A DNA stretch of 64,000 nt from Minisyncoccota bacterium (GTDB taxonomy: Bacteria; Patescibacteriota; Minisyncoccia; Phycocordibacterales; UBA9973), in the NCBI GenBank assembly GCA_028718635.1, contig JAQULK010000001.1, positions 152,626-216,625 of the forward strand, read 5' to 3'. The translations under genes and the position numbers were made by a program. Below, piece by piece: positions 3,680 through 63,513 of this stretch. Within the stretch, counting starts at the first letter, position 1. Every line of letters begins with the position of its first letter. The notes beneath the pieces are model-generated. The model ran no database searches. It was given only the letters and a program-made list of their open reading frames with translations, and was not told the DNA's origin.

Positions 3680-4501
3680 ATGATTGAATTTTACAAATAT
3701 CACGGCGCTGGGAATGATTTTATTATGATAGACAATATCAATAAAAATATTTCTATGCCAAAGGAGCAAATTGCTTTTTTGTGCGATCGGCACATGGGCA
3801 TAGGGGCGGATGGATTAATTTTCCTTGAGCTGTCCCCGAAGGCAGATTGTTTTATGAATTATTACAATGCGGATGGAAGCTTGGCAGAAATGTGCGGTAA
3901 TGGTATCAGGTGTACAGCCAAATTTTTCTTAGAATTAACAAAATCAAAAAAGAAAGAATTATTTATAGACACCAGGGCTGGAATAAAAAAAGTAACATGC
4001 AATAAAGACGGAAGTTTTTCTGTGAATATGGGAATTCCAGTTTTTTCTCATAAGGATTTCCCAAAAGAACCTCTTGTGTTGGAAAACATTAAATTTAATT
4101 TCGTTTCGATGGGTAATCCGCATGCTGTTGGTTTTATAAAAAATATTTCTGAAATTGATATATCTAAAATCGGCCCCAAAATAGAATCGGATTCTAATTT
4201 TCCAAATAAAATAAATGCAGAGTTCGTGGAAAAAGTTAATGATACTTATTTTAAAGTAAGAGTTTGGGAACGCGGATGTGGGGAGACTCTAGCTTGCGGC
4301 ACAGGGGCTTGTGCTGTGTTTGCCTGCGTTAGGCCTTGCCTAACGCAGGCAAAGAGTACAAAAGAAATAACATTAGAATTTCCTGGCGGGAATCTTTTTT
4401 TATCAGAGAATAAAGAAGGAGAAATTATTCTTCGCGGGGAAGCGCAATTTGTTTTTAAGGGAGAAATAAATAATATACAAGGCAAAACTTTGTATATTTA
4501 A
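3680..4501 (+). CDS. dapF: Diaminopimelate epimerase
   Basis: YHGAGNDFIMID N-terminal motif and the two catalytic Cys-containing segments (MCGNGIRC, ACGTGACA). Confidence 0.9.
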   Translation: MIEFYKYHGAGNDFIMIDNINKNISMPKEQIAFLCDRHMGIGADGLIFLELSPKADCFMNYYNADGSLAEMCGNGIRCTAKFFLELTKSKKKELFIDTRAGIKKVTCNKDGSFSVNMGIPVFSHKDFPKEPLVLENIKFNFVSMGNPHAVGFIKNISEIDISKIGPKIESDSNFPNKINAEFVEKVNDTYFKVRVWERGCGETLACGTGACAVFACVRPCLTQAKSTKEITLEFPGGNLFLSENKEGEIILRGEAQFVFKGEINNIQGKTLYI

Positions 4502-4505
4502 ATTT

Positions 4506-6206
4506 TTATTCCTCTTTTAGGTCTACTACGCTTTGCACTTCTTCAAAAGAAGTAATGCCATTTAACATTTTTACCAGACCATCTTGGCGCATTGAAAGTA
4601 TTCCTTGCGTGCTTGCCACTTTTTTGATTTCTCTTTCGCTTGGATTTTCAGGTATAATTTTTTCGATAGCCTCATCAGTTTTTATCGCTTCGAATATTCC
4701 TATCCTGCCCTTATATCCGATCATATTGCATTTGTCACAACCTACTGCTCCAAATAATTTTATTGGCGCATCGGGATTTATATTATAATTTGAAAGATTT
4801 TTACCTTCATTTTTTATACTGTCCATGACTAATTTTACGGTTTTCAATTCTTCTTCACTAGGTATTTTTTCTTTCTTGCAAAAAATACATAATTTGCGGA
4901 CCAATCGTTGAGCAATGGAAAGGGAGAGGGCGGAAACTAATATTTTAGGGTTTACTCCCAGGTCGATCAAACGGGGAATGACACCAGCTGCGTTGTTTGT
5001 GTGCAGAGTAGAGAAGACGATATGGCCAGTAAGCGATGATTGGACTGCCGTCTCAGCGGTTTCTTTATCACGAATTTCTCCAACCATCACTACATCTGGA
5101 TCTTGGCGAAGCGCTGAACGCAAGCCCTCCACGAAAGTATAACCTTTTTCATCATTGGTTTGGGTTTGGGTTACGCCTATTAAATGGTATTCTACTGGGT
5201 CTTCTATGGTTATTATTTTTATTTCTGGAGAATAAATTTTTTGAAGAAAGGCGTAAAGAGTGGTGGTTTTTCCAGAACCAGTCGGTCCTGTAACCAAGAT
5301 GAGTCCATTTGGTTTTATAATTTCCTTTTGGATTATAGAGAAAAGAAAAGGCTCTATTCCCAGCTCCTCGAGTTTTACTTGGATAGACTTCGGGTCCAAA
5401 ATACGCATTACGATTGATTCACCATAAGCGCCGGGAATAAGAGAAGTACGAATATTTATCTCATCTTTTTCTTCAATAATACTAAAACGCCCGTCTTGGG
5501 CTATTTTAGAAGTGAGTTTCATACCAGAAAGTAATTTAATACGAGAATTAAGTAGGCGATATACGTCTAATCCAAAAAAGTTTGTATCTTGTAATACTCC
5601 ATCTAGTCGAAGCCTTAGCCTGCTTCTTTCTTGTTCTGGTTCGATGTGAATATCAGAAGCTTTAATCGCGATCGCGCCAGCTAAAATTATTTCAAGTAAA
5701 TGAGAAATTTTATGAATTTTTTTTCCTTCTAATGCCTCGGCAACCATTTTTTGGATATCTTGCATTTTTTCTATTTTTTTTGATGTTTCCCTTAAAACTT
5801 CTCCAGAAATATCTATCCCACCAATTAGAGAGTTTTCTGCCATGGAAATTTCTTTATATCTATCCCAAACCTTGTTTATACTTGCAGTAGATACCATATA
5901 AAAAGTTGGTACTAGGTTTTTTCTTTCCAGATCGTCTTTTAACTTTTTTATAAGATCGTCGGAGGGGGAGTGTAGTGCTATAAAAATATTTTTCCCAAAA
6001 AGCTTAAAAGGCGCGATGTTTAATTCTCTCGAATCTTTTTCAGATATTGCGCGAAGTGCTTCGTTGTCTATTCCAATGCGGGCAAGATTAATATAAGGCA
6101 GGTTATATTTTGATTCTGCCAGTGTCGCCACCAATTGTTCTTCTTCTTGTTTATGCAATTCGTCTAATTGTTTATTTTGTTTTTCCTCATCAAAAACTGT
6201 TGCCAT
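4506..6206 (-). CDS. pilB: Type II/IV secretion system ATPase (PilB/GspE family)
   Basis: Walker A LVTGPTGSGKTTTL, N-terminal T2SSE_N-like region, and a C-terminal CxxC...CxxC zinc-binding cluster. Confidence 0.85.
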   Translation of the reverse strand: MATVFDEEKQNKQLDELHKQEEEQLVATLAESKYNLPYINLARIGIDNEALRAISEKDSRELNIAPFKLFGKNIFIALHSPSDDLIKKLKDDLERKNLVPTFYMVSTASINKVWDRYKEISMAENSLIGGIDISGEVLRETSKKIEKMQDIQKMVAEALEGKKIHKISHLLEIILAGAIAIKASDIHIEPEQERSRLRLRLDGVLQDTNFFGLDVYRLLNSRIKLLSGMKLTSKIAQDGRFSIIEEKDEINIRTSLIPGAYGESIVMRILDPKSIQVKLEELGIEPFLFSIIQKEIIKPNGLILVTGPTGSGKTTTLYAFLQKIYSPEIKIITIEDPVEYHLIGVTQTQTNDEKGYTFVEGLRSALRQDPDVVMVGEIRDKETAETAVQSSLTGHIVFSTLHTNNAAGVIPRLIDLGVNPKILVSALSLSIAQRLVRKLCIFCKKEKIPSEEELKTVKLVMDSIKNEGKNLSNYNINPDAPIKLFGAVGCDKCNMIGYKGRIGIFEAIKTDEAIEKIIPENPSEREIKKVASTQGILSMRQDGLVKMLNGITSFEEVQSVVDLKEE

Positions 6207-6275: not shown

Positions 6276-8789
6276 ATGCTAAAACAGAAAACAGATAATA
6301 GTAAAACATTAGTATTACTAGATGCTCATGCGATAATCCACCGCGCTTATCATGCCTTGCCGGAATTTTTGTCTTCCAAAGGCGAGCCGACGGGGGCGCT
6401 TTATGGGCTTTCCACTATGCTGATGAAAATAATTACTGAGTTAAAGCCGGATTATATTGTGGCCTGTTATGACTTGCCCCAAAAAACTTTTAGGCACGAA
6501 GCGCATGATGGATATAAGGCAGGCCGAGCGAAAACCGAAGATGCCTTGATAATGCAATTAAAAAATTCTCGCCAGATTTTTGACGCTTTTGATATACCTA
6601 TTTATGATGCGCCTGGTTTCGAAGCGGATGATGTTTTGGGGACTATCGTGGAGAAATATAAAAAAGATAAAAATTTGAAAATCATTATTGCATCAGGAGA
6701 TATGGATACTATGCAATTGGTGGATGATAAAAAAGTGCAAGTTTACACTTTGAAAAAAGGCATCAATGATACTATTTTGTACGATGAAGATGCGGTTGTA
6801 AATCGATTTCATTTTAAACCAAAATTCCTTCCTGATTTTAAAGGATTGCGCGGCGACCCTTCAGATAATATCATCGGCATTAAAGGCGTCGGCGAAAAAA
6901 CTGCTGAAATCTTAATCTCAAAATTTGGAACCATTGAAGAAATTTATAAAAAAATTAAACAAGACGAAGAAGTTTTTAAAAAAGCAGGCATCAGTCCTAG
7001 GATGATTGAGTTGCTCAAAAATAACGAGGAAGAGGCTTTATTTTCAAAAATTCTAGCGACGATCAGAACTGACACGCCGATAGATTTTGTTTTGCCTGAA
7101 AAGACTTTTTGGGAAAAGGTGGATTTTAAAAGAATTGAACAAATTTTTTCAACTTTTGAATTTAGAAGCTTAGTAACGCGTTTAAAAAACTTTTTTGAGA
7201 ATAATGGGAATAAGAATAAACAAGAGCCCCCAGAGGATTATGCTCGCCGTCATTCGCACTCCGTCTTGGAAGGGCAAGATCCATCTGGTCGCAGCGAAGA
7301 TTCCTCTGAGCATAATCCTCTGGGGGCTGAACCCATAGATTCGCAAAAACTTCAAGAAGCCAGTATCGCCCTTTGGCTTGTCAATTCTGATATACCGAAT
7401 CCCAGCTTGGAAGATATCTTATTTTTTACCCATACGAACTCTTTTGAAAAAGCTTATGAACATATTTTCAAAAAACTGAAAGAAAATAATTTGGAGAAAG
7501 TGTATGAAGAAATAGAAAAACCCATTATCCCGATAGTGAAAAAAATGGAGGATTATGGGATTTTGATAGATAAAAAATATTTTGAAAAATTGTCTGCTGA
7601 ATACCATAAAGAATTGGATATTTTAACTAAAAAAATATATGCGCAAGCTGGTGTTGAATTTAATATAAATTCACCCAAACAATTGGGAGAAATACTTTTT
7701 GGTAAAATGGGCATAAAATCACCAGGTAAAAATGGAGCAAAAAAAAGTGCAAACGGCGGATTTTCTACTAAGGTTTCAATTTTAGAAGAACTGGAAGAAG
7801 AAAATCCGATTATAAAAGAAATATTATTTTATCGAGAATTGCAGAAATTGCTTTCTACATATATTGATGTCATTCCTAAAATGGTGGATGCTAACGGCCG
7901 TTTACACACAAAGTTTTTGCAAAATGGTACCACGACGGGAAGATTTTCTTCTCAGAATCCTAATTTGCAAAATTTACCTATCAAAACAGAACTTGGTAGA
8001 AGGATCCGAGGCGGTTTTATTGCGCCCAAAGGTTGCAAACTAGTTGCTTTTGACTATAGTCAGATCGAATTACGCATGGCTGCAATGCTTTCTGGAGATG
8101 AAAAAATGACCCAAGTTTTCCGAGATAAAAAAGATATTCATGCGGGAGTTGCTTCTTTTGTTTTTGGTGTGCCAATAGAAAAAGTAGATAGTGAAATGCG
8201 CCGAAAAGCAAAAGTGATAAATTTCGGAATTATTTATGGTATGGGGGTTTCTGCTCTGCGAAAGAATCTCGTCCGACCAAAATCGGACTCCGACACAAGG
8301 TCGGAGGTGGTAACTCGCGAGGAGGCGCAAAGATTTTATGACAATTACTTCAATCAATTTTCTGGCGTGCGGGATTATTTAGAAAAAGTAAAAAAGTTTG
8401 TGCGAGAAAACGCTTATACCGAAACTTTATTCGGCAGACGCAGGAATTTTCCAAACATAAACTCCAGAATTCCATTTTTGAAAAATATGGCGGAGCGTAC
8501 CGCGACCAATGCTCCGCTCCAGGGAACAGCCGCCGATATTATCAAATTAGCCATACGATATGCGGAAGAAGATTTGAAAAAAGCCGGCTTGTCAGAAAGC
8601 ACTCATCTGATACTTCAAATTCATGATGAACTCGTTTACGAAGTGGAAGAAAGTGTACTCTCAAAAGCTGAAAAAATAATAATGGGTGCGATGGAAGGGG
8701 TGCTTCAAAGATCATATATACATTATAAAACGGATATTCCGCTCGAAGCGCACTTTGGTTTTGGGGACAATCTCAGGGAAGTCAAATAG
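6276..8789 (+). CDS. polA: DNA polymerase I (5'-3' exonuclease plus polymerase domains; no recognisable 3'-5' exonuclease domain)
   Basis: N-terminal 5' nuclease domain (LLDAHAIIHRAYHAL..., GIKGVGEKTA), C-terminal family A polymerase motifs (DYSQIELR, KAKVINFGIIYGM, ILQIHDELVYE). Two GC-rich in-frame insertions noted. Confidence 0.9.
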   Translation: MLKQKTDNSKTLVLLDAHAIIHRAYHALPEFLSSKGEPTGALYGLSTMLMKIITELKPDYIVACYDLPQKTFRHEAHDGYKAGRAKTEDALIMQLKNSRQIFDAFDIPIYDAPGFEADDVLGTIVEKYKKDKNLKIIIASGDMDTMQLVDDKKVQVYTLKKGINDTILYDEDAVVNRFHFKPKFLPDFKGLRGDPSDNIIGIKGVGEKTAEILISKFGTIEEIYKKIKQDEEVFKKAGISPRMIELLKNNEEEALFSKILATIRTDTPIDFVLPEKTFWEKVDFKRIEQIFSTFEFRSLVTRLKNFFENNGNKNKQEPPEDYARRHSHSVLEGQDPSGRSEDSSEHNPLGAEPIDSQKLQEASIALWLVNSDIPNPSLEDILFFTHTNSFEKAYEHIFKKLKENNLEKVYEEIEKPIIPIVKKMEDYGILIDKKYFEKLSAEYHKELDILTKKIYAQAGVEFNINSPKQLGEILFGKMGIKSPGKNGAKKSANGGFSTKVSILEELEEENPIIKEILFYRELQKLLSTYIDVIPKMVDANGRLHTKFLQNGTTTGRFSSQNPNLQNLPIKTELGRRIRGGFIAPKGCKLVAFDYSQIELRMAAMLSGDEKMTQVFRDKKDIHAGVASFVFGVPIEKVDSEMRRKAKVINFGIIYGMGVSALRKNLVRPKSDSDTRSEVVTREEAQRFYDNYFNQFSGVRDYLEKVKKFVRENAYTETLFGRRRNFPNINSRIPFLKNMAERTATNAPLQGTAADIIKLAIRYAEEDLKKAGLSESTHLILQIHDELVYEVEESVLSKAEKIIMGAMEGVLQRSYIHYKTDIPLEAHFGFGDNLREVK
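7225..7328 (+). repeat. 104-bp element with perfect 21-bp terminal inverted repeats inserted in-frame in the polA inter-domain linker
   Basis: AGCCCCCAGAGGATTATGCTC (7225..7245) and its exact reverse complement GAGCATAATCCTCTGGGGGCT (7308..7328); GC-rich relative to its surroundings. Confidence 0.75.
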
Positions 8790-9987: not shown

Positions 9988-10060
9988 TGCGCCCTGTTGG
10001 GATCGAACCAACGACCTTATCCTTAAAAGGGATCTGCTCTACCAGCTGAGCTAAGGGCGC
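9988..10060 (-). tRNA. tRNA-Lys (anticodon UUU)
   Basis: Reverse complement folds as a cloverleaf: acceptor GCGCCCT/AGGGCGC, D arm GCTCAGCTGGTAGAGC, anticodon loop CTTTTAA, T arm GTTGGTTCGATCCCAAC. Confidence 0.8.
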
Positions 10061-10082
10061 ATCATATGATAGTATAAGAAAT

Positions 10083-12329
10083 ATGTTGAAAAATCAACCT
10101 GCCCGCCCTCCTAAGTCAGGAGCAGGCGGGGGAAGTATCTTTAAATTACATAAACCTTTTGAGCCAGCGGGGGATCAGCCAGTGGCTATCAGAGCGCTTG
10201 TGCAAGGTCTGTCTAAGGGAATGAAAAAGCAAACATTACTAGGAGCCACCGGCACAGGCAAGACTTTTACTATGGCAAATGTCATAGCTCAATATAACAA
10301 ACCAACTTTGGTAATAGCTCACAACAAAACCCTTGCCGCCCAGTTGGCCCAAGAATTTCGTGAATTTTTTCCAGATTCCGCAGTGCATTATTTTGTTTCT
10401 TATTATGATTATTATCAACCAGAAGCCTACATGCCTGCATCGGATACTTATATTGAAAAAGATGCCTCTATCAATAAAGAAATAGACATACTTCGCCATG
10501 CTTCCACGCAAGCGCTTTTAACAAGACGAGATGTGATTATAGTTGCCTCGGTTTCTTGTATTTATGGTTTGGGTTCTCCGGAAGAATATGAAAAAGTTAA
10601 TTTAAAACTTGAAATTGGTATGACGATGGACAGATTGACCTTAATGAAGAAATTAATTCAAATTCATTTTGAACGTACCAATGCAGATCTTACTCCTGGA
10701 ACTTTTCGTTCCATCGGTTCGCGGGTGGAATTTATGCCAGTTTCGGAAAGTATAATGTACCAAGTTGAAATGCAGGGCGGGAGAATTTCCAAAATAACAA
10801 AAGTTGATCCAGTTTCTTCTATTATAATTTCTGAAGAAAAGAATATTTTTATTTTCCCAGCAAAACATTTTATTACTGAAGATGCAAAAAAGAAAAAAGC
10901 GCTTATAGAAATTAAAAAAGAGCTAGCACAACAGCTAAAAAAATTTGAAAAAGAAGGGAAACTTTTAGAGGCTGAACGTATAAAAAGAAGAACTAATTAT
11001 GATTTGGCGATGATAAAAGAAGCTGGTTATTGCAACGGCATAGAAAATTATTCTAGGCACTTATCAGGGAAAAAAGAAGGCGAACCGCCAGAAACATTGC
11101 TTTCCTATTTCCCTAAGACTGGTTTTCTTACGATTATTGATGAATCGCATGTCACAATTCCACAACTACAAGGAATGTACGCAGGAGATGCTTCAAGAAA
11201 AAACACTTTAGTAGAATATGGATTTAGACTACCCTCCGCAAAAGATAACAGACCTTTAAAATTCAATGAGTTTGAAAATAGAATATATAATTCTATTTAT
11301 ACTTCCGCTACACCTGCAAAATTTGAGAAATCAGAAAGTAATCAAATAGTGGAACAAATTATTCGTCCGACAGGGCTTGTGGACCCAGAGACAATAGTGC
11401 GACCAGTTTCCGAAGGCGCATTTCCTCCCCTCCTTAACAAGGAGGGGAATGAGGGGAGGTTCTTAATTAATTCACCTCACCCCAACCCTCTCCTTAGTAA
11501 GGAGAGGGGGAATAACTACCCTGGCCAGATTCAAGATTTTATTCAAGAAACAGAAAAAACAATTGCAAAAGGTTTCAGGGTTCTAGCGACGACGTTGACA
11601 AAAAAAATGGCAGAGGATCTTTCTGTTTATTTAAAGGACAAAAAGATCAAAGCAGAATATCTACACAGTGATGTAAAAACGATAGACAGGATAAAAATTT
11701 TAACCCAATTCCGCAAAGGCGAATTTGATGTTTTAGTTGGCGTAAATTTACTTCGTGAAGGGTTGGATTTGCCAGAAGTTGCTCTGATTGGAATTCTAGA
11801 TGCCGACAAGGCAGGTTTTTTACGATCTGAAACATCTTTAATTCAAACGATTGGCCGTGCGGCTCGCAATAGTGAGGGTAAGGTTATTCTTTATGCCGAC
11901 ATTATGACTCCCGCGATGGATTATGCCCTAAAAGAAACTGCTCGTCGCAGAAATATTCAGCTTGCTTACAACAAAAAACATGGCATTACCCCAAAAACAA
12001 TTATGAAAAAGATAAAGGATATCACCGAAGAAATGGAAAGCGAACATGGGAAAGTTGTAAACGCCGAGCTCCAGCTTGATTTGGAAGTTTTTAAGCGCGC
12101 TTATGCGAAAGAATTTAAAAAAGAAAAGAAACAAAATCGGAAAATACCGAACACCAGCTTGGGGCAGTCTTATTTGTCTGATGAAGAGATAGGCAATTTA
12201 ATCTATGAAAAAATAATAAAAATGAAAGAAAAAGAAATGAACAAGGCAGTCAAAGAGTTAGATTTCGAGACTGCGGCGATACTAAGAGACGAGATCGGAG
12301 TTTTGCGAATGCGTACAGAAAAAAAATAG
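10083..12329 (+). CDS. uvrB: Excinuclease ABC subunit B
   Basis: GATGTGKTFTMA Walker A, helicase motifs, beta-hairpin region and a C-terminal UVR domain. Contains an in-frame insertion of about 32 aa between IVRP and GQIQDF. Confidence 0.95.
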   Translation: MLKNQPARPPKSGAGGGSIFKLHKPFEPAGDQPVAIRALVQGLSKGMKKQTLLGATGTGKTFTMANVIAQYNKPTLVIAHNKTLAAQLAQEFREFFPDSAVHYFVSYYDYYQPEAYMPASDTYIEKDASINKEIDILRHASTQALLTRRDVIIVASVSCIYGLGSPEEYEKVNLKLEIGMTMDRLTLMKKLIQIHFERTNADLTPGTFRSIGSRVEFMPVSESIMYQVEMQGGRISKITKVDPVSSIIISEEKNIFIFPAKHFITEDAKKKKALIEIKKELAQQLKKFEKEGKLLEAERIKRRTNYDLAMIKEAGYCNGIENYSRHLSGKKEGEPPETLLSYFPKTGFLTIIDESHVTIPQLQGMYAGDASRKNTLVEYGFRLPSAKDNRPLKFNEFENRIYNSIYTSATPAKFEKSESNQIVEQIIRPTGLVDPETIVRPVSEGAFPPLLNKEGNEGRFLINSPHPNPLLSKERGNNYPGQIQDFIQETEKTIAKGFRVLATTLTKKMAEDLSVYLKDKKIKAEYLHSDVKTIDRIKILTQFRKGEFDVLVGVNLLREGLDLPEVALIGILDADKAGFLRSETSLIQTIGRAARNSEGKVILYADIMTPAMDYALKETARRRNIQLAYNKKHGITPKTIMKKIKDITEEMESEHGKVVNAELQLDLEVFKRAYAKEFKKEKKQNRKIPNTSLGQSYLSDEEIGNLIYEKIIKMKEKEMNKAVKELDFETAAILRDEIGVLRMRTEKK
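11420..11515 (+). repeat. Two tandem GC-rich palindromic mini-elements (CCCCTCCTTAACAAGGAGGGG and CCTCACCCCAACCCTCTCCTTAGTAAGGAGAGGGGG) inserted in-frame in uvrB
   Basis: Perfect hairpin palindromes; they encode VSEGAFPPLLNKEGNEGRFLINSPHPNPLLSKERGNNYP, which is absent from canonical UvrB between RP and GQI. Confidence 0.8.
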
Positions 12330-12487
12330 ACTTTTTAGTTTTTTGTTGTATACTGTTTCTAATTTAATATTAAAAGAAAGTCATTGACACCCCCTATGAG
12401 TAACGGCGGGTGTATTGGATATTTTATACAAAAAAAATGAAAAATGACCCCGAAGGAAAGAGTACTTCCTACGGGGCAGGAAAAAAT

Positions 12488-15148
12488 ATGAAAAAAGATT
12501 TTCAAGACAAAATAATAGTAAAAGGCGCACGAACCCATAATTTAAAGAATATAAATGTGGAAATGCCTCGTAATAAAATGATAGCCATTACTGGTGTTTC
12601 TGGTTCTGGAAAATCATCTTTGGCTTTTGATACCATTTTTGCCGAAGGACAACGCCGATACGTGGAGTCTCTTTCTTCTTATGCGCGACAATTTTTAAAC
12701 CAAATGCCTAAACCTGATGTGGATGAGATCACGGGTCTTTCTCCTGCAATATCTATTGATCAAAAATCTCGTTCAAATAATCCGCGCTCGACTGTGGCGA
12801 CGATTACAGAGATCTATGATTACTTGCGAGTGATGTATGCGCGCATTGGGCATCCACATTGTCCTTTGTGTGGCGAAGAAATTAAAAAACTTTCCAATGA
12901 AGAAATTTTAAATTTTGTTTTGGAAAAGTTGAAAACACCCTCCTTGATTAAGGAGGGTGTAGGGGGTGGTAATTCCAAGAAATCACCACCTCGCCCTTCG
13001 GGCACTCCTCCTCAAAAAGGAGGAGATAAAATTCGTAAGGTTATGGGAGTCGAATGGGATGAAACAGAAATCAGTATTTTTTCACCAGTAATCAGGGGAA
13101 GAAAAGGGGAATATTATCAACTGCTTTATGATTTGCTTGGAAAAGGTTTTGCCGAAATTCGTCTTGATGGGATGATGAAAAAACTTCGCGAGCAAATAAC
13201 TCTTTCTAAAAACAAAGCACACAATATTGATATTCTAGTGGATCATTTTGCTCTACATGAGTTTACGGATGATAAGGACGGTAGTAGAATGCGTCTTTCT
13301 GAGGCTCTAGAACGTGCGCTTCTCGAGTCTGATGGTTTAGTAACTATAAAAATCGGCGATGAGGAATTTATTATGTCTGCAAAATTCGCTTGTAAGAATG
13401 ACGGTTTTTCTTTTCCAGAAGTGGAGCCGAGATTATTTTCTTTCAATTCTCCTTATGGTGCCTGTCCAGCTTGTAATGGCCTTGGTTCAAAATATTTTAT
13501 GGGAGATGAACCTTGTGAAACTTGCCATGGCGCGCGTTTACGCTCTGAAGCCTTAAATGTTTTTTTAGAGGCTTCCAAGAAGAAGGTAAACATATTAGAT
13601 CTTGCTTCTCTTTCTATAAAAGACGCATATACTTTTTTCAAAAACTTAAAACTCTCAGAACAAGAGAAGGAAATATCGGTGCCAGTCGTTCGGGAGATAG
13701 AAGCCAGACTTCAATTTATGCTGGACGTAGGTTTGGATTATTTGCAGTTGTCTCGCAAGGCGAACACTCTCTCTGGCGGAGAAGCGCAGCGTATCCGCTT
13801 GGCTTCTCAGCTTGGTTCGAGGCTCGTCGGCGCGCTTTATGTGCTCGATGAACCCACGATCGGACTTCACCAGCGAGACAACGATCGTTTGATAAAAACA
13901 CTTCAAAATTTACGTGATTTAGGCAATACAATTTTAATTGTAGAACATGATGAGGATACTATATATGCTTCGGATTATATCGTAGATATAGGACCGAAGG
14001 CCGGGGTGCACGGCGGGGAAGTGGTTGTTTCCGGTTATTTAGAAGATCTATTAACTGCAAAAAAGAACACAAATAATTCTCGAACACTTAGTTATTTGCG
14101 CGGAGAAACAAAAATAGAAATTCCTAAAAAACGGCGCCATCCTAAAGGCGCGCTTCGAATTGCCGGAGGAAATATTTTTAATATTAACAACCTTAATGTA
14201 GAAGTGCCTCTCGGAGTAATGACATCTATCACTGGTGTTTCTGGTTCCGGAAAAAGTTCTTTTATGTATGAGATTCTTTATAAAAATCTTCAAGCCCGCT
14301 TTGAGCGAAAGTATCGCACAGCCAAGATTTTTAATTGTTCCTCATTTTCTGGGACTGAATATCTATCCAGAGTTATTTTGATTGATCAATCGCCCATAGG
14401 CAGGACTCCGCGTTCAAATATTGTTACTTATACAGGAGCCTTCACGCATATCCGAGATCTTTTTGCTTCGACCGAAGAAGCGCGCTTGCGAGGATGGAAA
14501 GCAAATCGTTTTTCTTTCAATGTGAAAGGTGGTCGTTGTGAGGCCTGCGAAGGCAATGGTGAGATAGCTGTCGAAATGCATTTTTTGCCGACGGTTTATG
14601 TCACTTGCGATGTATGTGATGGAAAACGTTTTGATAAAGAGACGCTTACTGTAAAATACAAGAAAAAAAATATTTACGAAGTCCTGCATATGACTGTAGA
14701 AAATGGCCTTACTTTTTTCAAAGATATTCCGGCGATTTCCGATAGACTGCAGACCCTCTTTGATGTAGGGCTTGGTTACTTGGAACTCGGCCAATCAGCT
14801 ACAACGCTCTCTGGCGGGGAAGCGCAACGAGTAAAAATAAGTAGCGAGCTTTATCGTCCGCATTTGGAAAAAACTATTTATCTTTTAGATGAACCGACTG
14901 TGGGGCTTCATTATGATGACGTGCAGAAACTTTTGGAGGTTTTAAATAAATTGGTATCTCATGGCAATACGGTTGTCCTAATTGAACACAACCTTGATAT
15001 TGTGAAAAGTTCAGATTACATTATAGATATTGGTCCAGAAGGAGGAGTAGACGGAGGTAAAATTGTTGCCAAAGGCACGCCGGAAGAAGTGGCTGGAAAC
15101 AGCAAATCACACACTGGCAAATACTTAAGAAGAGTTTTGAGAAAATAA
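12488..15148 (+). CDS. uvrA: Excinuclease ABC subunit A
   Basis: Two ABC ATPase modules ([12 protein letters not shown] and [10 protein letters not shown]), zinc fingers, and ABC signature LSGGE twice. Start set at the ATG at 12488 ([21 protein letters not shown]) by alignment to the UvrA N-terminus. The ORF-track start at 12410 is a GTG. Confidence 0.9.
12935..13026 (+). repeat. Three small GC-rich palindromes inserted in-frame in uvrA
   Basis: CACCCTCCTTGATTAAGGAGGGTG, GGTGGTAATTCCAAGAAATCACCACC and CCTCCTCAAAAAGGAGGAG; the encoded segment [30 protein letters not shown] is absent from canonical UvrA. Confidence 0.75.
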
Positions 15149-15226
15149 AATTACATTTGTCCCGTACTAAATTTTTGATTACGGGGTATAAAGATAAGCA
15201 TTAATAATTAAAATTTTAGTACTGGG

Positions 15227-16519
15227 ATGACGAATGAAACTCTAAAAAAATTAAAACTGCCAGATAAGCCCGGTGTATATTTTTTCTTAAAAAATAAGAA
15301 AATTTTATACATCGGAAAAGCGACCTCTCTTCGAGACCGCACCAAAAGCTATTTCAGCAAGGACTTGATAAATACCCGAGGTCCGCTTGTTTTAGATATG
15401 GTTTTTAAATCGGACAATATAAAATGGGAAGCCACCGATTCTGTTTTAGAAGCTCTTATTTTAGAAGCTAATTTAATAAAAAAATATCAGCCTTATTACA
15501 ATACAAGAGAAAAAGATGATAAGAGTTTCAATTATGTCTGCATCACAAGGGAGAAATTGCCAAGAGTATTAGTAGTTAGAGGCCGAGTTTTAAAAAATTA
15601 TAAAGGAAGTATCTTTGGCCCGTATACTAGCGGTACCCAATTGCATGAGGCGTTAAAAATCTTACGCAGAATTTTTCCTTTTATTGATGACAAATCGAGT
15701 AAAAAACAAAACTATGAATTTTATAAACAGCTTGGACTGACTCCAGACGCATCATCTCCGAGTGAAATTTATTTGGATAATATAAAATATTTGAAACTTT
15801 TCTTTAAAGGCAAAAAGAAAGATATCATCCGAGATTTGAAAAAAAAGATGATGCAAAAAGCCAAAGAGGGAGAATTTGAAAAGGCCGGAGAAGTTAAAAG
15901 GCAAATTTTTGCGCTGAAACACATCAATGATATTGCGCTTATAAAAAATAGCTTCGCAGATAATAAAATTTTTGGTCCTGCGCCCTCCTTTGGGCGCATT
16001 TCTGGGAGCAAAGCGGGACCCTCGGACACAAAAATTTTATTATCTGCTTTGCTATTTCGCATTGAGGCTTATGACATAGCGCACATGGGAGGCAAAAATA
16101 TGGTTGGGGTGATGACAGTTTTGGAAAACGACGAAGCAGTAAAGAGTGAGTACAGAAAATTCAAAATTAAGACTCAGAATAATGTAAATGATACCGGCGC
16201 ACTCGCGGAAGTTTTAGAAAGAAGGTTGATGCATAAAGAATGGGCATTTCCAGATTTAATTGTGGTGGATGGCGGTATGGCGCAAATTAATGCCGCCAAA
16301 AGTGTTTTAAAAAAAATGGGTTTAAACATACCCGTAGTTTCTGTTGTTAAAGATGAACACCATAAACCGAAAGCCATAATGGGGGACAATCCACGCCACG
16401 GCAGGGCAAGAGATTTTGGATTAAAATATAAAAGAGAAATTCTACTAGCGAACAGCGAAGCACACCGATTTGCCATCAGTTATCATAAAAATATGAGGAA
16501 TAAGAATTTCTTGATTTAG
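15227..16519 (+). CDS. uvrC: Excinuclease ABC subunit C (short form, about 430 aa, lacking C-terminal HhH region)
   Basis: N-terminal GIY-YIG domain (PGVYFFLKNKKILYIGKATSLRDR) and a C-terminal RNase H-like endonuclease domain (VVDGGMAQINAA...). Confidence 0.85.
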   Translation: MTNETLKKLKLPDKPGVYFFLKNKKILYIGKATSLRDRTKSYFSKDLINTRGPLVLDMVFKSDNIKWEATDSVLEALILEANLIKKYQPYYNTREKDDKSFNYVCITREKLPRVLVVRGRVLKNYKGSIFGPYTSGTQLHEALKILRRIFPFIDDKSSKKQNYEFYKQLGLTPDASSPSEIYLDNIKYLKLFFKGKKKDIIRDLKKKMMQKAKEGEFEKAGEVKRQIFALKHINDIALIKNSFADNKIFGPAPSFGRISGSKAGPSDTKILLSALLFRIEAYDIAHMGGKNMVGVMTVLENDEAVKSEYRKFKIKTQNNVNDTGALAEVLERRLMHKEWAFPDLIVVDGGMAQINAAKSVLKKMGLNIPVVSVVKDEHHKPKAIMGDNPRHGRARDFGLKYKREILLANSEAHRFAISYHKNMRNKNFLI

Positions 16520-16544
16520 CGCGTAAAAAGCATAATATGTAAAT

Positions 16545-18293
16545 ATGAATTCCGAAACGCGGGTCTGCCAAAATTGCAAAAAAGATTTCACGATAGAACC
16601 AGAAGATTTTTCTTTTTATGAGAAACTAAAAGTGCCAGCGCCCACTTGGTGTCCGGACTGCAGATTTGTACGCAAACTCACTTTTATTAATGAACGATCT
16701 TTATATAAAGAAACTTGCGGTAATTGCAAAAAATCAATAATTTCAATGTATAGTCCAGAGAGCGGTATTTCTTCTTGGTGTATCAAATGCCACTTGAGCG
16801 ATGTCTGGGATGCGCGCGATTATGGCAGGGAATATGATTTTTCGAAGACATTTTTTGAGCAGTTTAAAGAATTAAAATACAATATTCCTCACAGAGCGCT
16901 TGATCAAAATGAACGCAACGGAGAAGGCTGTGAATATTCAAATTTATGCTTTGCGAACAAAGATGTCTATTTATCTTTTAATATTGTGGGTTCTGAGCAT
17001 ATAAAATATTCTAATAATGTTTTAAAACGAAATAAAAATTGTTTGGATTCTATGATTATTAAAGCCAACGATAGAGGATACGAGCTGGTACAAGCCAGCA
17101 ACAATTACAACTCGACTTTTTTAATAGAAAGTGATCAGTGTGTGGATTCACATTTCCTTTATGATTGTTCAAATTGCGTAAAATGTTGTTTATCATGTAA
17201 TCTTCGCAATAAAAGTAATGTTTTTAAAAATCAACAATTATCTAAAGAGAAATATGAAGAAGCAGTTACAAATTTGAAATTAGAAACATATTCAGGACAA
17301 ATAAAGGCTAAGGATATTTTTAGGGATTTAGCAAAAAATGCTATTCATAAACATGCGCACATTAAAAATTCAGTAAATGTAGTTGGGGATTTTGTGGAAA
17401 ATTCAAAAAATGTTTATCACTGCTATTGTGTGGCTGATGCGGAAAATGTTAAATATGTTTTTTTTAGTGCCAATGCTATGAAAGATAGCCAAGATGTTGT
17501 GTCATGTGGAAAGATTGAAGAATGTTATGAATTTACTTTAGGAGGAAGAGGTTCCAATCGAGTAGTTTTATGTCTTAGTTGTGGAGGAGGGAATAATAAT
17601 TTGTTTTATTGTGATAATGTTAGAAGTAGTTCTAATTGCTTTGGTTGTGTGAATTTAATTAAGAAACAATATTGTATATTTAATAAGCAATATTCAAAAG
17701 AAGAATATTTCGAATTGTTGTCGAAAATTATGAAACATATGAATGAGATGCCGTATGTGGATGCGCTTGGAAGGGAATATGTTTTTGGTGAATTTTTTCC
17801 TACAGAGATTTCTCCTTTTGCTTATAATGAAACTCGAGCATTTGAAGAATGTCCACTTTCAAAAGAAGAAGTGCTTGCTTTTGGTTATAAATGGAAGGAA
17901 ATAGAAGCCAAAGCCTATGTTCCAACAATAAAAGGAGATGCTATTCCTGATAGCATTAAAGATGTTGAGGATACAATTTGCGACGAAGTTATCGAGTGTC
18001 CCAATAAAGGTAAAGTAGAGACGCGATGCACTTCAGCCTATAAAATATTACCGGATGAGCTTTCTTTTTATCGACAAATGAATCTGCCGATACCTAGATA
18101 TTGTCCGAATTGTAGATACCACCAGCGTTTAGCTTGGAAAAATCCTTTTCATTTTTATAAACGAGAGTGTATGTGTGAATTGCAGAATCATCAACACAAA
18201 GGAAAGTGTCTAAATAAATTTGAAACTATGTATGCTTCTGATCGACCAGAGATAATTTATTGCAAAGAATGTTATCAGGCAGAAATATATTAG
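16545..18293 (+). CDS. Cys-rich protein of unknown function (paralogue 1 of a two-member family in this window)
   Basis: 582 aa. N-terminal CQNCKKDFTIEPEDFSFYEKLKVPAPTWCPDCR and C-terminal MNLPIPRYCPNCR zinc-ribbon-like modules, plus internal C.GC.NL...YCI.NKQYSKEEY repeats. Full-length homology to the ORF at 51882..53585. Confidence 0.7.
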   Translation: MNSETRVCQNCKKDFTIEPEDFSFYEKLKVPAPTWCPDCRFVRKLTFINERSLYKETCGNCKKSIISMYSPESGISSWCIKCHLSDVWDARDYGREYDFSKTFFEQFKELKYNIPHRALDQNERNGEGCEYSNLCFANKDVYLSFNIVGSEHIKYSNNVLKRNKNCLDSMIIKANDRGYELVQASNNYNSTFLIESDQCVDSHFLYDCSNCVKCCLSCNLRNKSNVFKNQQLSKEKYEEAVTNLKLETYSGQIKAKDIFRDLAKNAIHKHAHIKNSVNVVGDFVENSKNVYHCYCVADAENVKYVFFSANAMKDSQDVVSCGKIEECYEFTLGGRGSNRVVLCLSCGGGNNNLFYCDNVRSSSNCFGCVNLIKKQYCIFNKQYSKEEYFELLSKIMKHMNEMPYVDALGREYVFGEFFPTEISPFAYNETRAFEECPLSKEEVLAFGYKWKEIEAKAYVPTIKGDAIPDSIKDVEDTICDEVIECPNKGKVETRCTSAYKILPDELSFYRQMNLPIPRYCPNCRYHQRLAWKNPFHFYKRECMCELQNHQHKGKCLNKFETMYASDRPEIIYCKECYQAEIY

Positions 18294-32716: not shown

Positions 32717-32849
32717 ATAATTTCTTTGGTAGTTTTAGATTAACAGTTTTTTGTTTTAAGGTAAAGATGCAACCCCCTAAATCCCCCTTGTCAGGGGGAC
32801 TATAAGAATTTTCCCTCCTTGATAAGGGAGGGCAGGGAGGGTTGTATTT

Positions 32850-33344
32850 CTAAAACCCCAAGGCCTCCATTATTTTTTCTGAAGCATGTTCTTTCATTTC
32901 CACTTCTGGAATATTTTTTGAAAGCATTATGGAGTGAATATCTTCTGCTATTGCTTCAGCTATTGGGATAGAGAGAATAGGCATAAAAGCTCTTTCTGAA
33001 TGAATGAAAAGGATTGGTTTAATACCTGCTTCAGGATGTTCTCCTAATTGAACCCAAAAGGATTTTATATTTTCAAAAGGATAAAGGCGGTTTCTAATGA
33101 TCAAGCCCTTTTGATTTAATTCATAGGTGATCGTATCTGGTTTTTTAATGGCAAAAAATCCGAGCAGGATTCCAGCAAGAATAATTAAAGCTGCAAAAAA
33201 ATAATTTTCAAAAATAATAGAAGCGATGGAGCTTGTCACCACAATGATGCCGAGCGCCCAAAACCAATCCGAGGTTCGATCTTTCTCTTCGTATTCCAAG
33301 GCAGACCAAACTAATTTTTCATCTGATCTTTCGATTATTTCCAT
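32850..33344 (-). CDS. Hypothetical membrane protein (2 TM)
   Basis: ORF with two hydrophobic helices. Its ATG is provided by the end of a MITE-like repeat. Confidence 0.5.
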   Translation of the reverse strand: MEIIERSDEKLVWSALEYEEKDRTSDWFWALGIIVVTSSIASIIFENYFFAALIILAGILLGFFAIKKPDTITYELNQKGLIIRNRLYPFENIKSFWVQLGEHPEAGIKPILFIHSERAFMPILSIPIAEAIAEDIHSIMLSKNIPEVEMKEHASEKIMEALGF

Positions 33345-39628: not shown

Positions 39629-39666
39629 AAATCTGTGAAACTTCTTTATTTAATTTAATTCGTTTG

Positions 39667-39751
39667 CGGAAACGGTGAGATTCGAACTCACGGTGCCTTG
39701 CGGCACTCTTGTTTTCAAGACAAGTGCGTTAGACCACTCCGCCACGTTTCC
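39667..39751 (-). tRNA. tRNA-Ser (anticodon UGA)
   Basis: Minus-strand cloverleaf with long variable arm; acceptor GGAAACG/CGTTTCC; anticodon loop CTTGAAA. Confidence 0.8.
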
Positions 39752-45509: not shown

Positions 45510-45524
45510 GAGAGAGAGAGAGAG
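45510..45524 (+). repeat. (GA)7 dinucleotide microsatellite abutting the GTG start of the beta-helix surface protein gene
   Basis: GAGAGAGAGAGAGAG immediately followed by GTGAATGAC. Confidence 0.8.
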
Positions 45525-48142
45525 TGAATGACGCTCGCCAATTTTGTCATCCTGAACTTGTTTCAGGATCTAATGCGTTTGCCAAAATAATAAAACTTTT
45601 CCGTTTCATTTTTTTCTTCTCGATATTTCTGGGAAGCTTTTTTGTTTTGGCAAACGAAGCAAGCGCGGCGACGTATTATGTGGATGCGACTCTTGGAAAG
45701 GATACATATAATGGTATAACCACAACTATAAATGATGGAGCAAGTGAAGGTCCATGGAAAACACTAACTAAAGTAAATGCCGCGCTGAATGCCGCTTCTA
45801 TTCATGCTGGTGATAGTGTTTTATTTAAAGCAGGGGAGACTTTCTTTGGCTATTTGTATGTTAAGGTAACGGGAACGGTAGGAAATATATTAACATTTGA
45901 TTCCTATGGAAGTGGAAATAAACCTATAATCGACGCTACTGGAAATAATAGCGGTATCGATCTTCGTGGAATAAATTATGTTACGTTTAATAATTTGGAT
46001 GTTAGAAATGCAACATTCCAAGGATACTTTTTTCTCAATGGAAATGACCACATAACAATAAATAATGGAAGTATATCTTCTTCTGCAAAGGCTATCCATC
46101 TCTATAACAATACAATTTCAAATCTAACAATTTCAAATCTAAATGCCAGTAATAATACATATGGTATTTATGGATTTGCCGGGGTTACTGTTAACACATT
46201 GTCCATATCCAATAGCCATTTCGACGACAACACATCAGAAGGTTTTTTCACCGATGGCACTGCGAACGGGAGTAATTTTACGATAACAGATACCACCATG
46301 TCCCGTAATGGGATCGGATCTGATAAAAATGGATTTTTACTACAAGGGACCGGCAGTACAGTTATCCTTACCAGGGTAACATCAGCCAACAACGGAGGGG
46401 ATGGATTTGGTGTCCATAACACTTGGATTGGTGTTATTTTTGATTATTGTACGGCGGATACTAACGGAACAGACGGGATAGGATCAGATGGAGACGGATT
46501 CAGTTTCCATGAGACTTCTTCTGGAATAATCAGGTATTCAATCAGCAAAAATAATTTAAAAACTGCGATTGCTCACGTTAATAGCTCCGCTGTTGAAATG
46601 TATTATGATCTTTTTTATCATGCAACCAATGGCACCTTGCCGCTTGTTTTATTACAAAATACTGGAAATCATAAATTATATAATAATATTATTTACAGTG
46701 GAAGTCAGACTGGTGATGCAGTAAGCGTTGAAGGGACCGTTGATATGCAAAACAATATAATAGATGGTTTCAATCGTGGCCTTATAAAAACTGGAGGAAC
46801 AATATCCAATGACCATGATATTATTTATGGAGTATTAACTTCTAATTATGTTGGTATTTCTGCCGGTGCTTATTCAATTATACAGGATCCAAAATTTTTT
46901 AATTCCAGTATTTATAACTTTTCCCTTCTCCCCACTTCCCCCGCCATCGACTCTGGCACCGATGTCTCATTAACCACCGACTACGCCGGCAATTCCATCT
47001 ACGGTACGCCCGACATCGGCGCTTATGAATACCAGCCGCCATATACCATGGGCACGGATGCAGTAAACACTTCCACCAGTGTCAGAATGTACGGAGACGA
47101 AAAGTTCAGAAACAAAACCGCCACCACCACGGAAACCACGGCTGATCTCTCAATTACCATTCCCGACTCGGATAAAACCAAGTGGCTGGACATAGCAGTT
47201 TCCACCTGGGACAACTCCGGAACTTATCACAAAACCTGGACGGAAAACACTACCAGCACCATTACCAACACCCTCCATACCATCGGAGACCTGGAACCCA
47301 ACAAATACTACAATGTGTCCGTGGATTCCGTTCTGGGAAACAACATTACCGGCGATAACTGTTCAAACGGCCTCTGTCTTTCCAACGCGGAAGGTAAAAT
47401 ATCTTTTACCTATACTGGTTCATATTCCGAACACACCTTTGACGTGGAAGAAGGAGATAATACCGCCCCCATCCGTTCCGCCGGTTTGCCTTCCGGCAGT
47501 CAACCTGCTGGCACAACGCAAGTAACAATGTCTTTGACCACCGACGAAAACGCCACCTGCAAATACTCCACCTCTGCCGACACCGCTTACGCTTCCATGA
47601 CCGATACCTTTACCACAACTGGCACCCAATCCCATTCCACCACCATTTCCGGTCTCTCCAACGGCAATACATACAATTACTATGTCCGCTGCACTGACGG
47701 CTCAAATGCTAACAGCAACGATTACCCTATTTCTTTTTCCATTACTAACCCTACCGCGCATTCTTCAGGCAACAGTGCTCAGAGTCGAATCAACAATCTG
47801 CTCTCCATGGGCAACTACACCCAAGCGCAACAATTGGCTAATCAATACAATATTTCAATTCCAGTAATTACCACCCCGCCTACAGCACCCCTCCTGAATC
47901 AAGGAGGGGAAAGAAGTGTTAATGCTTACAACTTTGGTCTCTCTGTTCTCAAAAAAGGAAGCAAAGGTGAAGCTGTCAAAGAACTCCAGAAGTTCTTAAA
48001 CCAAGATCTGAAACTAAACTTGAAAATAGATGGCATCTTGGGATCAAAAACAACTATGGCTATCAAACAATACCAAAAAGCGCATAATCTAAAAGTGGAT
48101 GGGGTAGTGGGGGAGAAGACGAAGGGGAGGATGGGGGTGTGA
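45524..48142 (+). CDS. Secreted right-handed beta-helix (pectate-lyase-like repeat) protein with C-terminal peptidoglycan-binding domain
   Basis: Hydrophobic signal-like segment then cleavage-like ANEASAA; many N.T.S..N..I/..N repeats typical of parallel beta-helix; C-terminal PG_binding_1-like segment (KGEAVKELQKFLNQ...IDGILGSKTTMAIKQYQ). GTG start preceded by a (GA)7 repeat. Confidence 0.7.
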   Translation: MNDARQFCHPELVSGSNAFAKIIKLFRFIFFFSIFLGSFFVLANEASAATYYVDATLGKDTYNGITTTINDGASEGPWKTLTKVNAALNAASIHAGDSVLFKAGETFFGYLYVKVTGTVGNILTFDSYGSGNKPIIDATGNNSGIDLRGINYVTFNNLDVRNATFQGYFFLNGNDHITINNGSISSSAKAIHLYNNTISNLTISNLNASNNTYGIYGFAGVTVNTLSISNSHFDDNTSEGFFTDGTANGSNFTITDTTMSRNGIGSDKNGFLLQGTGSTVILTRVTSANNGGDGFGVHNTWIGVIFDYCTADTNGTDGIGSDGDGFSFHETSSGIIRYSISKNNLKTAIAHVNSSAVEMYYDLFYHATNGTLPLVLLQNTGNHKLYNNIIYSGSQTGDAVSVEGTVDMQNNIIDGFNRGLIKTGGTISNDHDIIYGVLTSNYVGISAGAYSIIQDPKFFNSSIYNFSLLPTSPAIDSGTDVSLTTDYAGNSIYGTPDIGAYEYQPPYTMGTDAVNTSTSVRMYGDEKFRNKTATTTETTADLSITIPDSDKTKWLDIAVSTWDNSGTYHKTWTENTTSTITNTLHTIGDLEPNKYYNVSVDSVLGNNITGDNCSNGLCLSNAEGKISFTYTGSYSEHTFDVEEGDNTAPIRSAGLPSGSQPAGTTQVTMSLTTDENATCKYSTSADTAYASMTDTFTTTGTQSHSTTISGLSNGNTYNYYVRCTDGSNANSNDYPISFSITNPTAHSSGNSAQSRINNLLSMGNYTQAQQLANQYNISIPVITTPPTAPLLNQGGERSVNAYNFGLSVLKKGSKGEAVKELQKFLNQDLKLNLKIDGILGSKTTMAIKQYQKAHNLKVDGVVGEKTKGRMGV

Positions 48143-51797: not shown

Positions 51798-51881
51798 ATC
51801 TAAGAAATACTTTCTCACCCCAACCCCTCTCCATAAATTGATTTATGGAGAGGGGAAAGCAAGGGGAGAGGTGAATTAATT

Positions 51882-63372: not shown

Positions 63373-63441
63373 AAAGACCTCACCCCAGCCCTCTCCTTGT
63401 TAAGGAGAGGGGGGTTCATTTGACTATTTGAGCAAAAAGAG

Positions 63442-63472
63442 TATTATTAAGAAAGCCCTTGAAAGGGGGCTT
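63442..63472 (+). terminator. Rho-independent terminator downstream of the SIMPL gene
   Basis: AAAGCCCTTGAAAGGGGGCTTTTTTAAAA: GC-rich stem-loop followed by a T run. Confidence 0.6.
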
Positions 63473-63513
63473 TTTTAAAATAATTTAAAAATCCGCTATA
63501 GGCGGGGAAGTAT

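Follow-up and report, generated by a model that had tools for sequence, protein, structure and literature searches.

A REPIN-like palindromic doublet lying in-frame in uvrA of a Patescibacteria genome and the dispersed repeat family to which it belongs

Introduction

REPs and REP dimers are known to occur in-frame within open reading frames (ORFs), where the dimers encode 20–30 residues; intragenic copies have been found in uvrA (Opitutus terrae, Thioalkalivibrio), uvrB (Rickettsia conorii) and polA, and the authors remarked that replication and repair genes contain many of the intragenic REPs (Di Nocera, De Gregorio & Rocco 2013, BMC Genomics 14:522, PMC3733652). Two inverted REP units around a short spacer form a REPIN (PMC3337134), and REPINs are mobilised by RAYT transposases (Bertels & Rainey 2011; PMC3116915, PMC3337134). 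Another kind of palindromic selfish DNA and the classic in-frame case, the Rickettsia palindromic elements (RPEs), is found in many unrelated housekeeping genes of a small AT-rich genome, RPE-1 being about 150 bp long with a conserved peptide; the added peptide segments are regarded as compatible with the protein fold (Ogata et al. 2000, as summarised in PMC10969869). The present work concerns a stretch of about 90 nt in uvrA, within 64,000 nt of a Patescibacteria (candidate phyla radiation, CPR) genome (37.6% GC; this whole analysed stretch is hereafter called the window). It consists of two inverted palindromic units around an AT-rich spacer, and it very probably represents a non-autonomous palindromic element of the REP/REPIN kind, inserted in-frame in a loop of UvrA, tolerated and presumably translated.

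Like the GTAG/CGTC REPs, the units are short, GC-rich and palindromic, are often paired in opposite orientation and lie in-frame in ORFs. Unlike them, the present unit is without the tag and has a C-rich tail (ACCACC/ACCTC) and often two hairpins, its host is a Patescibacteria genome of about 0.67 Mb, and the family stays nearly unchanged over contigs of 33–71% GC, whereas the described REP families are mostly species- or genus-specific. A GTAG does stand at 12958–12961 in the window; the orthologues read GTTG, GCAG or GCTG there, and the right unit and most of the metagenome copies have neither tag. With REPINs the element shares the inverted two-unit doublet with a spacer, which can fold as one long or as separate small hairpins and recurs at many loci; in contrast, REPINs are extragenic by definition while five of the eight units in the window lie within ORFs, no RAYT gene is seen within the window, and the two arms in uvrA are not identical. 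With the RPEs, the likeness lies in an in-frame palindromic repeat in unrelated genes of a small AT-rich genome (uvrA, uvrB and ORF 45524–48142 here; FtsK, MnmA, UvrA and UvrB elsewhere), and what sets the element apart is its 90-nt length, its non-conserved peptide and the different bacterial group.

The mobile GC clusters and byps of yeast mitochondria are likewise GC-rich hairpins that have spread in an AT-rich genome and land in coding sequences. Both, however, are organellar, and byps are skipped by the ribosome and have no need of the frame, whereas the present insert is always in frame. The phenomenon of intragenic REPs, with uvrA among the hosts, is already published. What seems to be undescribed is the repeat family itself, its spread over many phyla, the dynamics at its hot spot and the tight conservation of its stems within genes; no description of such an element in CPR/Patescibacteria was found in the literature searched.

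Results

Anatomy of the palindromic stretch in uvrA

The genes uvrB (10083–12329), uvrA and uvrC (15227–16519) are consecutive, all on the + strand. The UvrA of the window is identical (100%) to protein P0001 of 886 aa, named excinuclease ABC subunit UvrA, and matches the solved UvrA chains 2r6f/3uwx with E = 3e-127. An earlier note on this DNA had pointed to three GC-rich hairpin palindromes at 12935–13026; the sequence is as it described, all three (H1–H3) were located, and a fourth mini-hairpin, absent from that note, lies between the second and the third. The features are as follows.

12488..15148, + strand: coding sequence of uvrA, the host gene (from the ORF list; annotated start ATG 12488)
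12935..13025, + strand: the whole inserted REPIN-like doublet, about 90 nt, in-frame in uvrA (from the fold; absent from 58 of 81 related uvrA loci)
12935–12945 with 12950–12960: H1, ACACCCTCCTT/AAGGAGGGTGT, 11 bp, perfect, 4-nt loop GATT
12963–12970 with 12985–12992: H2, GGGGTGGT/ACCACCTC, 14-nt loop AATTCCAAGAAATC
12993–13003: mini-hairpin GCCC-TTC-GGGC
13005–13012 with 13018–13025: H3, CTCCTCCT/AGGAGGAG, 8 bp, perfect, loop CAAAA
12935..12970, - strand: left unit, inverted, H1 plus the tail GGGGGTGGT (12962–12970); nhmmer E = 2.6e-5
12971..12984, no strand: AT-rich spacer AATTCCAAGAAATC, coding for NSKK, the loop of the tail-tail helix H2 in the fold
12985..13025, + strand: right unit, forward, tail ACCACCTC, mini-hairpin 12993–13003 and H3 CTCCTCCT-CAAAA-AGGAGGAG (13005–13025)

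RNA folding of the 111-nt uvrA stretch gave four side-by-side hairpins with -52 kcal/mol, compared with -28.5 +/- 3.4 kcal/mol for its dinucleotide shuffles (z = -6.9; 0 of 200 as good), and DNA folding gave z = -6.95. Moreover, when perfect hairpins with a stem of at least 7 and a GC content of at least 60% were counted, the whole window held 13 against 1.5 +/- 1.2 in shuffled sequence, and arms of the form CC(C)TC(T)CC(T)T..A(A)GGAG(A)GG(G) are common to seven of these 13. The hairpin set in uvrA is real and far above chance expectation.

The unit was defined by aligning the uvrA stretch with its own reverse complement, with the insert in uvrB and with the copies at 47870 and 63377. The reverse complement of the left unit aligns with the other family units, and six units (from uvrA, uvrB, 47870 and 63377) align as a tail followed by a hairpin. 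The common unit is 35–41 nt long with GC-rich stems of 8–11 bp, and consists of a C-rich tail (ACCACCYC / ACCTCACCCC), sometimes a mini-hairpin, and then CCYCTCCT(T)-loop-(A)AGGAGRGG. In the uvrA doublet the mini-hairpin is present only in the right unit, which is why its arms differ. The middle palindrome, H2, is the pairing between the tails of both units. Thus the palindromes described in the earlier note are present as hairpins, but they are not separate elements: the three make up one doublet of two inverted units and a spacer.

Presence, absence and turnover at the uvrA site

For the comparison of the site, 81 uvrA DNA loci were used (80 species-level GTDB genomes and the window), and the linker was measured from VLEK(L) to VMGVEW. 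It is short (27–45 nt) in 58 of the 81 loci and long (57–117 nt) in the other 23. The window has 108 nt compared with a modal 36 nt in the relatives, a net gain of about 72 nt (24 aa), slightly below the earlier estimate of some 30 extra residues. Among the 120 closest UvrA proteins (85–93% identical, 859–939 aa), a MAFFT alignment confines the length variation to a few hot spots, the largest of them at the insert site, and L005, the nearest relative by UvrA sequence, is empty there. All 81 linkers are a multiple of three long, in a single frame and free of stop codons. The in-frame insertion into uvrA claimed by the earlier note is borne out by this indel hot spot, by the short empty linker of most relatives and by the frame kept at every locus.

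The filled sites hold type I (the doublet of the window), type II (an unrelated palindrome of about 75 nt with the arms GGGAAGAAGAATTCT / AGAATTCTTCTTCCC) or at least four other GC-rich inserts, so that at least six unrelated palindromic insert types occupy the same loop. Besides the window, 10 assemblies that come independently from different projects have the type I doublet, which means that it is not an assembly artefact. Its carriers are scattered on a neighbour-joining UvrA tree, with nine Fitch parsimony steps for 11 carriers, a count that is indicative only because the tree is merely a neighbour-joining one; L042, a carrier at just 75% identity, is placed among empty loci. The doublet also varies among its carriers: a third unit is nested within the spacer in L095, and in L099 the mini-hairpin is exchanged for a longer hairpin. 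A linker conserved among the relatives had been named beforehand as grounds for giving up the insertion. About 20 of the 120 closest proteins do hold the orthologous linker, so it is common to several lineages and not private to this genome; most relatives lack it and others carry unrelated inserts, so it is not a conserved native feature.

Several further observations were made at this site. In the type I carriers L094 and L099 about 14 host codons normally 3' of the doublet are gone and the element joins ISIFSP directly, showing that deletions happen beside the element. P0042, P0085 and P0108 look like partial inserts without H3 through an alignment artefact; in their DNA the full doublet is present and the following host codons are lost. 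The type II insert is carried by L002, L004, L006, L012 and L032 (uvrA hot spot, locus position about 4430–4600), with AGAATTCTTC on both of its sides, which may be a target-site duplication, and P0089 (GKKNSSSSNSNK) and similar relatives resemble an empty or excised type II site. In terms of miniature inverted-repeat transposable elements, the arms of the type I doublet are inverted repeats and no consistent duplication flanks it, while a AGAATTCT-type repeat flanks the unrelated type II.

Conservation of the stems and not of the peptide

An alignment was made of the 11 orthologous type I doublets, each from an independent assembly. In it, 96.2% of the cells of the four-helix structure are paired, compared with 54–71% when the partners are slid, and changes on both sides of a pair are found in three pairs, located in H1 and the mini-hairpin; for example, GCCC/GGGC becomes GCCT/AGGC in L093 and L098, with a C.A intermediate in L096 and L095. 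The orthologue L094 has two mismatches in H1. The mean pairwise difference (pi) of the stems is 0.056, and that of H2 and H3 is 0.000, while it is 0.33–0.61 in the loops and spacer and 0.43–0.52 at third-codon positions of the flanking 270 nt of uvrA. In addition, L001, L042 and L097 read NSKKNHLALKGTPP at the doublet where the window has another peptide (SPPRPSG versus NHLALKG), a difference caused by one base lost before the tail and one base gained in the mini-loop (a compensated -1/+1 change). With the DNA thus read in different frames in different variants, what is maintained is the palindromic DNA and not the amino acids. The conservation of the stems may be due either to constraint on the DNA or RNA structure or to homogenisation or replacement from a genomic pool of copies.

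A sister doublet in uvrB and other copies in the window

With nhmmer, eight units were found within the window and more in the relatives' loci. A sister doublet, laid out like that of uvrA, is in the neighbouring uvrB.

11426..11508, + strand: sister doublet in uvrB, inverted unit, spacer and forward unit, read as PPLLNKEGNEGRFLINSPHPNPLLSKERG
11426–11448 (hairpin) and 11453–11460 (tail GGGGAGGT): inverted unit of the uvrB doublet
11461–11473: spacer TCTTAATTAATTC of the uvrB doublet
11474–11483 (tail ACCTCACCCC) and 11486–11508 (hairpin): forward unit of the uvrB doublet
47870..47909, + strand: single unit (ACCACCCCGCCTACAGCACCCCTCCTGAATCAAGGAGGGG), read in-frame as TTPPTAPLLNQGGE, in the linker that precedes the PG-binding domain at the C-terminus of ORF 45524–48142
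63377..63411, + strand: single intergenic unit, 5 nt past the stop of ORF 62539–63372
51814..51875, + strand: intergenic member, long-loop hairpin 51824–51855 between the complementary tails CTCACCCC / GGGGAGAGGTGA
32782..32841, - strand: two family-type hairpins, TCCCCCT-TGTC-AGGGGGA (32782–32799) and the unit 32813–32841, just 3' of ORF 32850–33344(-)

The earlier note held that uvrA and uvrB had been hit by the same kind of element, and this was right: the insert in uvrB is real and homologous, and both align as one unit family. The VRP..QIQDF linker of UvrB is encoded by 120 nt in the window, while 30 relatives have 27 nt there and others as much as 153 nt, and among the relatives' uvrB loci the doublet of the window was seen at this site only in L099. 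A homologous copy of the member at 51814..51875 is present in L016, and the unit at 63377 lies upstream of a classical terminator hairpin (63452–63473). At gathering thresholds Rfam gave no match to the element, only tRNAs, and at permissive E-values over 11350–13100 there were just sub-threshold matches resembling miRNA precursors on both strands of the uvrB doublet, which are explained by its being a generic long hairpin.

Spread of the family

Public collections were searched with a pattern for the right unit (CCACCYCGCC-N3-8-GCACYCCTCCT). It was found in 12 IMG/VR viral contigs and, with a GC content of 33–71%, in at least 120 contigs of groundwater, soil, rumen and human-gut metagenomes. 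Among the matches listed, 105 of 127 have the complementary AGGAGGRG arm after a short loop, so these are true copies and not chance matches, and about one fifth of the metagenome copies listed lie within long ORFs. The intragenic copies elsewhere are read in five of the six possible frames, and their hosts identified with Pfam include FtsK (in a variable linker), MnmA, UvrB (at the same VRP hot spot), UvrA and AAA_25 proteins. Furthermore, the complete doublet with an AATTC-type spacer recurs in L107 (FtsK), L168 (UvrB, VRP site) and L191 (MnmA) and between genes in L144, L153, L175 and L178; this recurrence at unrelated sites argues that the doublet together with its spacer is the moving unit. 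In GC-rich genomes the doublets have symmetric two-hairpin arms, and low-GC, CPR-like contigs hold a sub-family with linked changes, namely CCACCTCGCC, and CACTCCTCCT paired with AGGAGGAG. An identical unit with identical flanks (cttatctctaccta...tcccaaaaggaggggaagcctg) is shared by L084, L087, L090, L092 (IMG/VR), L129, L131, L149 and L162, which are viral and human-gut contigs and apparently represent one phage lineage with an intergenic repeat.

Position of the insert in the protein

In a phmmer alignment the UvrA of the window follows the Geobacillus structures 2r6f_A/3uwx with a break between residues 159 and 165, where about 47 of its residues face about five of the solved chain 2r6f_A. 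On the domain map of Pakotiprapha et al., the insert site is a loop early in the UvrB-binding domain. An AlphaFold2 model of UvrA built with 46 close homologues was unusable (mean predicted local distance difference test score 36, predicted template modelling score 0.26) because the alignment was too shallow. The copy at 47870 lies in an inter-domain linker and that of L107 in the FtsK linker, which is consistent with survival only at permissive sites.

Other palindromes and genes around uvrA

Further palindromes of other types were observed in neighbouring genes. In polA (ORF 6276–8789) the hairpins GTCCGA-CCAAAA-TCGGAC and CTCCGAC-ACAAG-GTCGGAG (8268–8309) lie in frame, giving DNA polymerase I the residues VRPKSDSDTRSEV between its LRKNL and VTREEAQRF; this pair looks like another palindromic insert, and its CTCCGAC/GTCGGAG stem also stands in place of the mini-hairpin in the L099 uvrA doublet. 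The dapF gene (ORF 3680–4501) contains a perfect palindrome with a 16-bp stem at 4319–4353, TTTGCCTGCGTTAGGC-CTT-GCCTAACGCAGGCAAA, which reads FACVRPCLTQAK and belongs to a different family. Imperfect GC-rich in-frame palindromes of other families lie at the N-terminus of uvrB (10097–10140) and in uvrC (15974–16026), where CCTGCCCGCCCTCCT-AAGTC-AGGAGCAGGCGGGGG codes for NQPARPPKSGAGGGS and GGTCCTGCGCCC-TCCTTT-GGGCGCA...GGGACC codes for GPAPSFGRISGSKAGPS, so that all three uvr genes carry palindromic inserts; palindromic inserts are thus found in uvrA, uvrB, uvrC and polA of this genome. The spacer between uvrB and uvrA has two hairpins (12388–12414 and 12447–12480) just upstream of the ATG of uvrA at 12488. 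The second, CCCCG-AAGGAAAGAGTACTTCCTA-CGGGG, would read NDPEGKSTSYGAGKN if translation started at GTG 12410, from which a longer ORF runs through this palindrome. Since the nearly identical NNPEGQSTSYGAGKK occupies the uvrA hot spot in L008, this palindrome belongs to a further mobile palindrome family.

A scan of 10000–16600 for sigma-70 promoters and intrinsic terminators gave no excess over shuffles and nothing at the uvrA element. According to Pfam searches of all window ORFs of at least 85 aa, the genes are ordinary housekeeping genes. A 170-aa ORF at 39766–40275 (-), adjoining tRNA-Ser (39666–39751), resembles HNH endonucleases weakly, with matches that stay under the Pfam cut-offs (E about 2e-4); this ORF is the sole nuclease-like candidate in the window, and no tie to the repeats was shown. 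Genes of a mobile or defence flavour lie at 44649–45476, 48501–49253, 49255–50304 and 60908–61645 (Bro-N, SWIM zinc-finger, Fic and AbiEii toxin), with tRNA-Val (43925) and tRNA-Arg (48245) near the first three, and this cluster may be the remnants of an integrated element.

Discussion

The anatomy of the 90-nt stretch, its membership in a repeat family, its presence and absence among relatives, the preserved frame, the recurrence of the doublet and the conservation of the stems at the nucleotide level were all observed directly, and from them we consider it very probable that a REP/REPIN-like element was inserted. The inserting entity would be two units of 36–41 nt, arranged tail-to-tail and inverted around the 14-nt AT-rich spacer. 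It would have entered AT-rich DNA, rich in lysine codons, that codes for the loop in the UvrB-binding domain, perhaps as single-stranded hairpin DNA moved by a trans-acting transposase, RAYT-like or other, encoded elsewhere. As the length is a multiple of three and the GC-rich palindromes are without stop codons, the insert would simply be translated, as a loop extension of about 30 residues rich in Pro, Gly, Ser and Lys, which may be nearly neutral for UvrA; selection would remove the copies that break the frame or land in structured parts of a protein.

A number of points weigh against this explanation. A Pfam search of all ORFs of at least 85 aa in the window, outside which about 90% of the genome lies, found no transposase and no Y1/RAYT (Y1_Tnp) protein, and among 3,079 ORFs taken from 132 loci with the element, all-versus-all BLASTP revealed only orthologous neighbourhoods and no diverged protein family that recurs beside the element; movement by a RAYT-like single-strand transposase is therefore an inference by analogy. 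The flanks of at least 15 units are AT-rich, often with AAT[TC] before the tail, and show no clear target-site duplication or fixed target motif, and neither the GTAG nor the CGTC that marks the known REP superfamilies is conserved in the units. The surface exposure of the loop is suggested solely by alignment to solved UvrA. The absence of any variation in two stems, next to synonymous sites that are nearly saturated, exceeds what is expected of a neutral passenger. Moreover, the empty loci L005 and L011 read AAT TCA AAG AAG (NSKK), compared with AAT TCC AAG AAA (NSKK) in the spacer, a match that could be an excision footprint, chance, or host codons left between two separate unit insertions.

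The last possibility leads to the view that the doublet arose from two independent single-unit insertions flanking the host codons AAT TCN AAR AAR (NSKK). In close empty relatives, which read ...SKNSKKNKK, the codons AAT TCA AAG AAG stand at the matching place, single units do exist (47870 and 63377), and one is found inside the spacer in L095; on the other hand, unrelated genes and intergenic DNA contain the same doublet together with an AATTC-type spacer, and the spacer of the uvrB doublet has no host counterpart, so we regard this origin as unlikely. About as doubtful is the explanation that the host keeps the palindromes, possibly after their arrival by insertion, as a functional nucleic-acid element in mRNA or DNA, whether as hairpins of Shine-Dalgarno and anti-Shine-Dalgarno type (CCUCC with GGAGG) that would pause ribosomes at a domain boundary, as a transcript stabiliser, or as a protein-binding or cruciform site. 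It would account for a stem pi of 0.000–0.10 against 0.43–0.52 at neighbouring synonymous sites, for the compensatory changes in H1 and the mini-hairpin, and for GC-rich stems retained in a genome of 37.6% GC, with a unit near-invariant in contigs of 33–71% GC; the right arms are Shine-Dalgarno-like (AAGGAGG), and intergenic copies stand directly after stop codons as in REPs. However, most relatives do without the insert and the same loop takes at least six unrelated ones, the L094 orthologue has its two mismatches in H1, no Rfam family matches, and the conservation could equally be the product of gene conversion or of master copies that re-insert.

Two other explanations are very improbable. 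That the stretch is a native, lineage-specific, flexible GC-rich linker of UvrA and not an insertion might be thought from the very similar linker in about 20 of the 120 closest proteins and from the empty form in the clade, which is still about 20 residues longer at this loop than Geobacillus UvrA; but the nearest relative is empty, 58 of the 81 loci are short, the variants keep the DNA but differ in the frame in which the peptide is read, and the same DNA unit occurs in uvrB, another ORF, intergenic DNA and FtsK, MnmA and UvrB of other organisms, where a chance origin of the dispersed copies is disfavoured by the complementarity of the hairpins (105 of the 127 matches listed). It is hardly more credible that the insert escapes translation, through ribosome bypass in the style of T4 gene 60 or the Magnusiomyces mitochondrial byps, or through removal from the RNA. 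GC-rich hairpins in genes of an AT-rich genome do resemble the byps, and the conservation of the stems would suit a signal at the RNA level. Nevertheless, inserts of many types, 30–90 nt long, are in-frame and stop-free at all 81 loci, and since bypass elements need no such conservation of the frame, its being kept by every insert type makes bypass or RNA removal unlikely; moreover, the insert has neither a matching pair of codons for take-off and landing nor a stop at its 5' edge, and nothing in it marks a ribozyme or an intron.

Returning to the insertion of a REP/REPIN-like element, which we prefer, its meaning for the organism is that this genome, although Patescibacteria are known for streamlining, tolerates repeat DNA within core repair genes, where the same loops are hit repeatedly. 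It also independently backs the earlier remark on excision-repair genes as preferred hosts of intragenic REPs. For annotation, it explains stretches of low complexity rich in Pro, Gly and Ser and the length variation in CPR proteins, and it cautions against calling them lineage-specific domains. A more far-reaching and rather improbable view is that of a cosmopolitan family, from Patescibacteria to gut and soil bacteria and phage contigs, under nucleotide-level selection even within coding sequences and perhaps favouring loops of excision-repair and DNA-handling genes (uvrA, uvrB, uvrC, polA, ftsK); it would then be either a functional intragenic RNA or DNA structure, for instance a Shine-Dalgarno/anti-Shine-Dalgarno hairpin that controls translation at the passage from one domain to the next, or a selfish element that depends for its survival on modifying the repair machinery, which would otherwise act on its hairpins. 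For repeat biology, the finding is a tagless REPIN-like family over a wide range of phyla and GC contents, with invariant stems beside nearly saturated synonymous sites, and this contrast between stems and synonymous sites offers a testable handle on whether REP-type elements are neutral, self-homogenising or functional.

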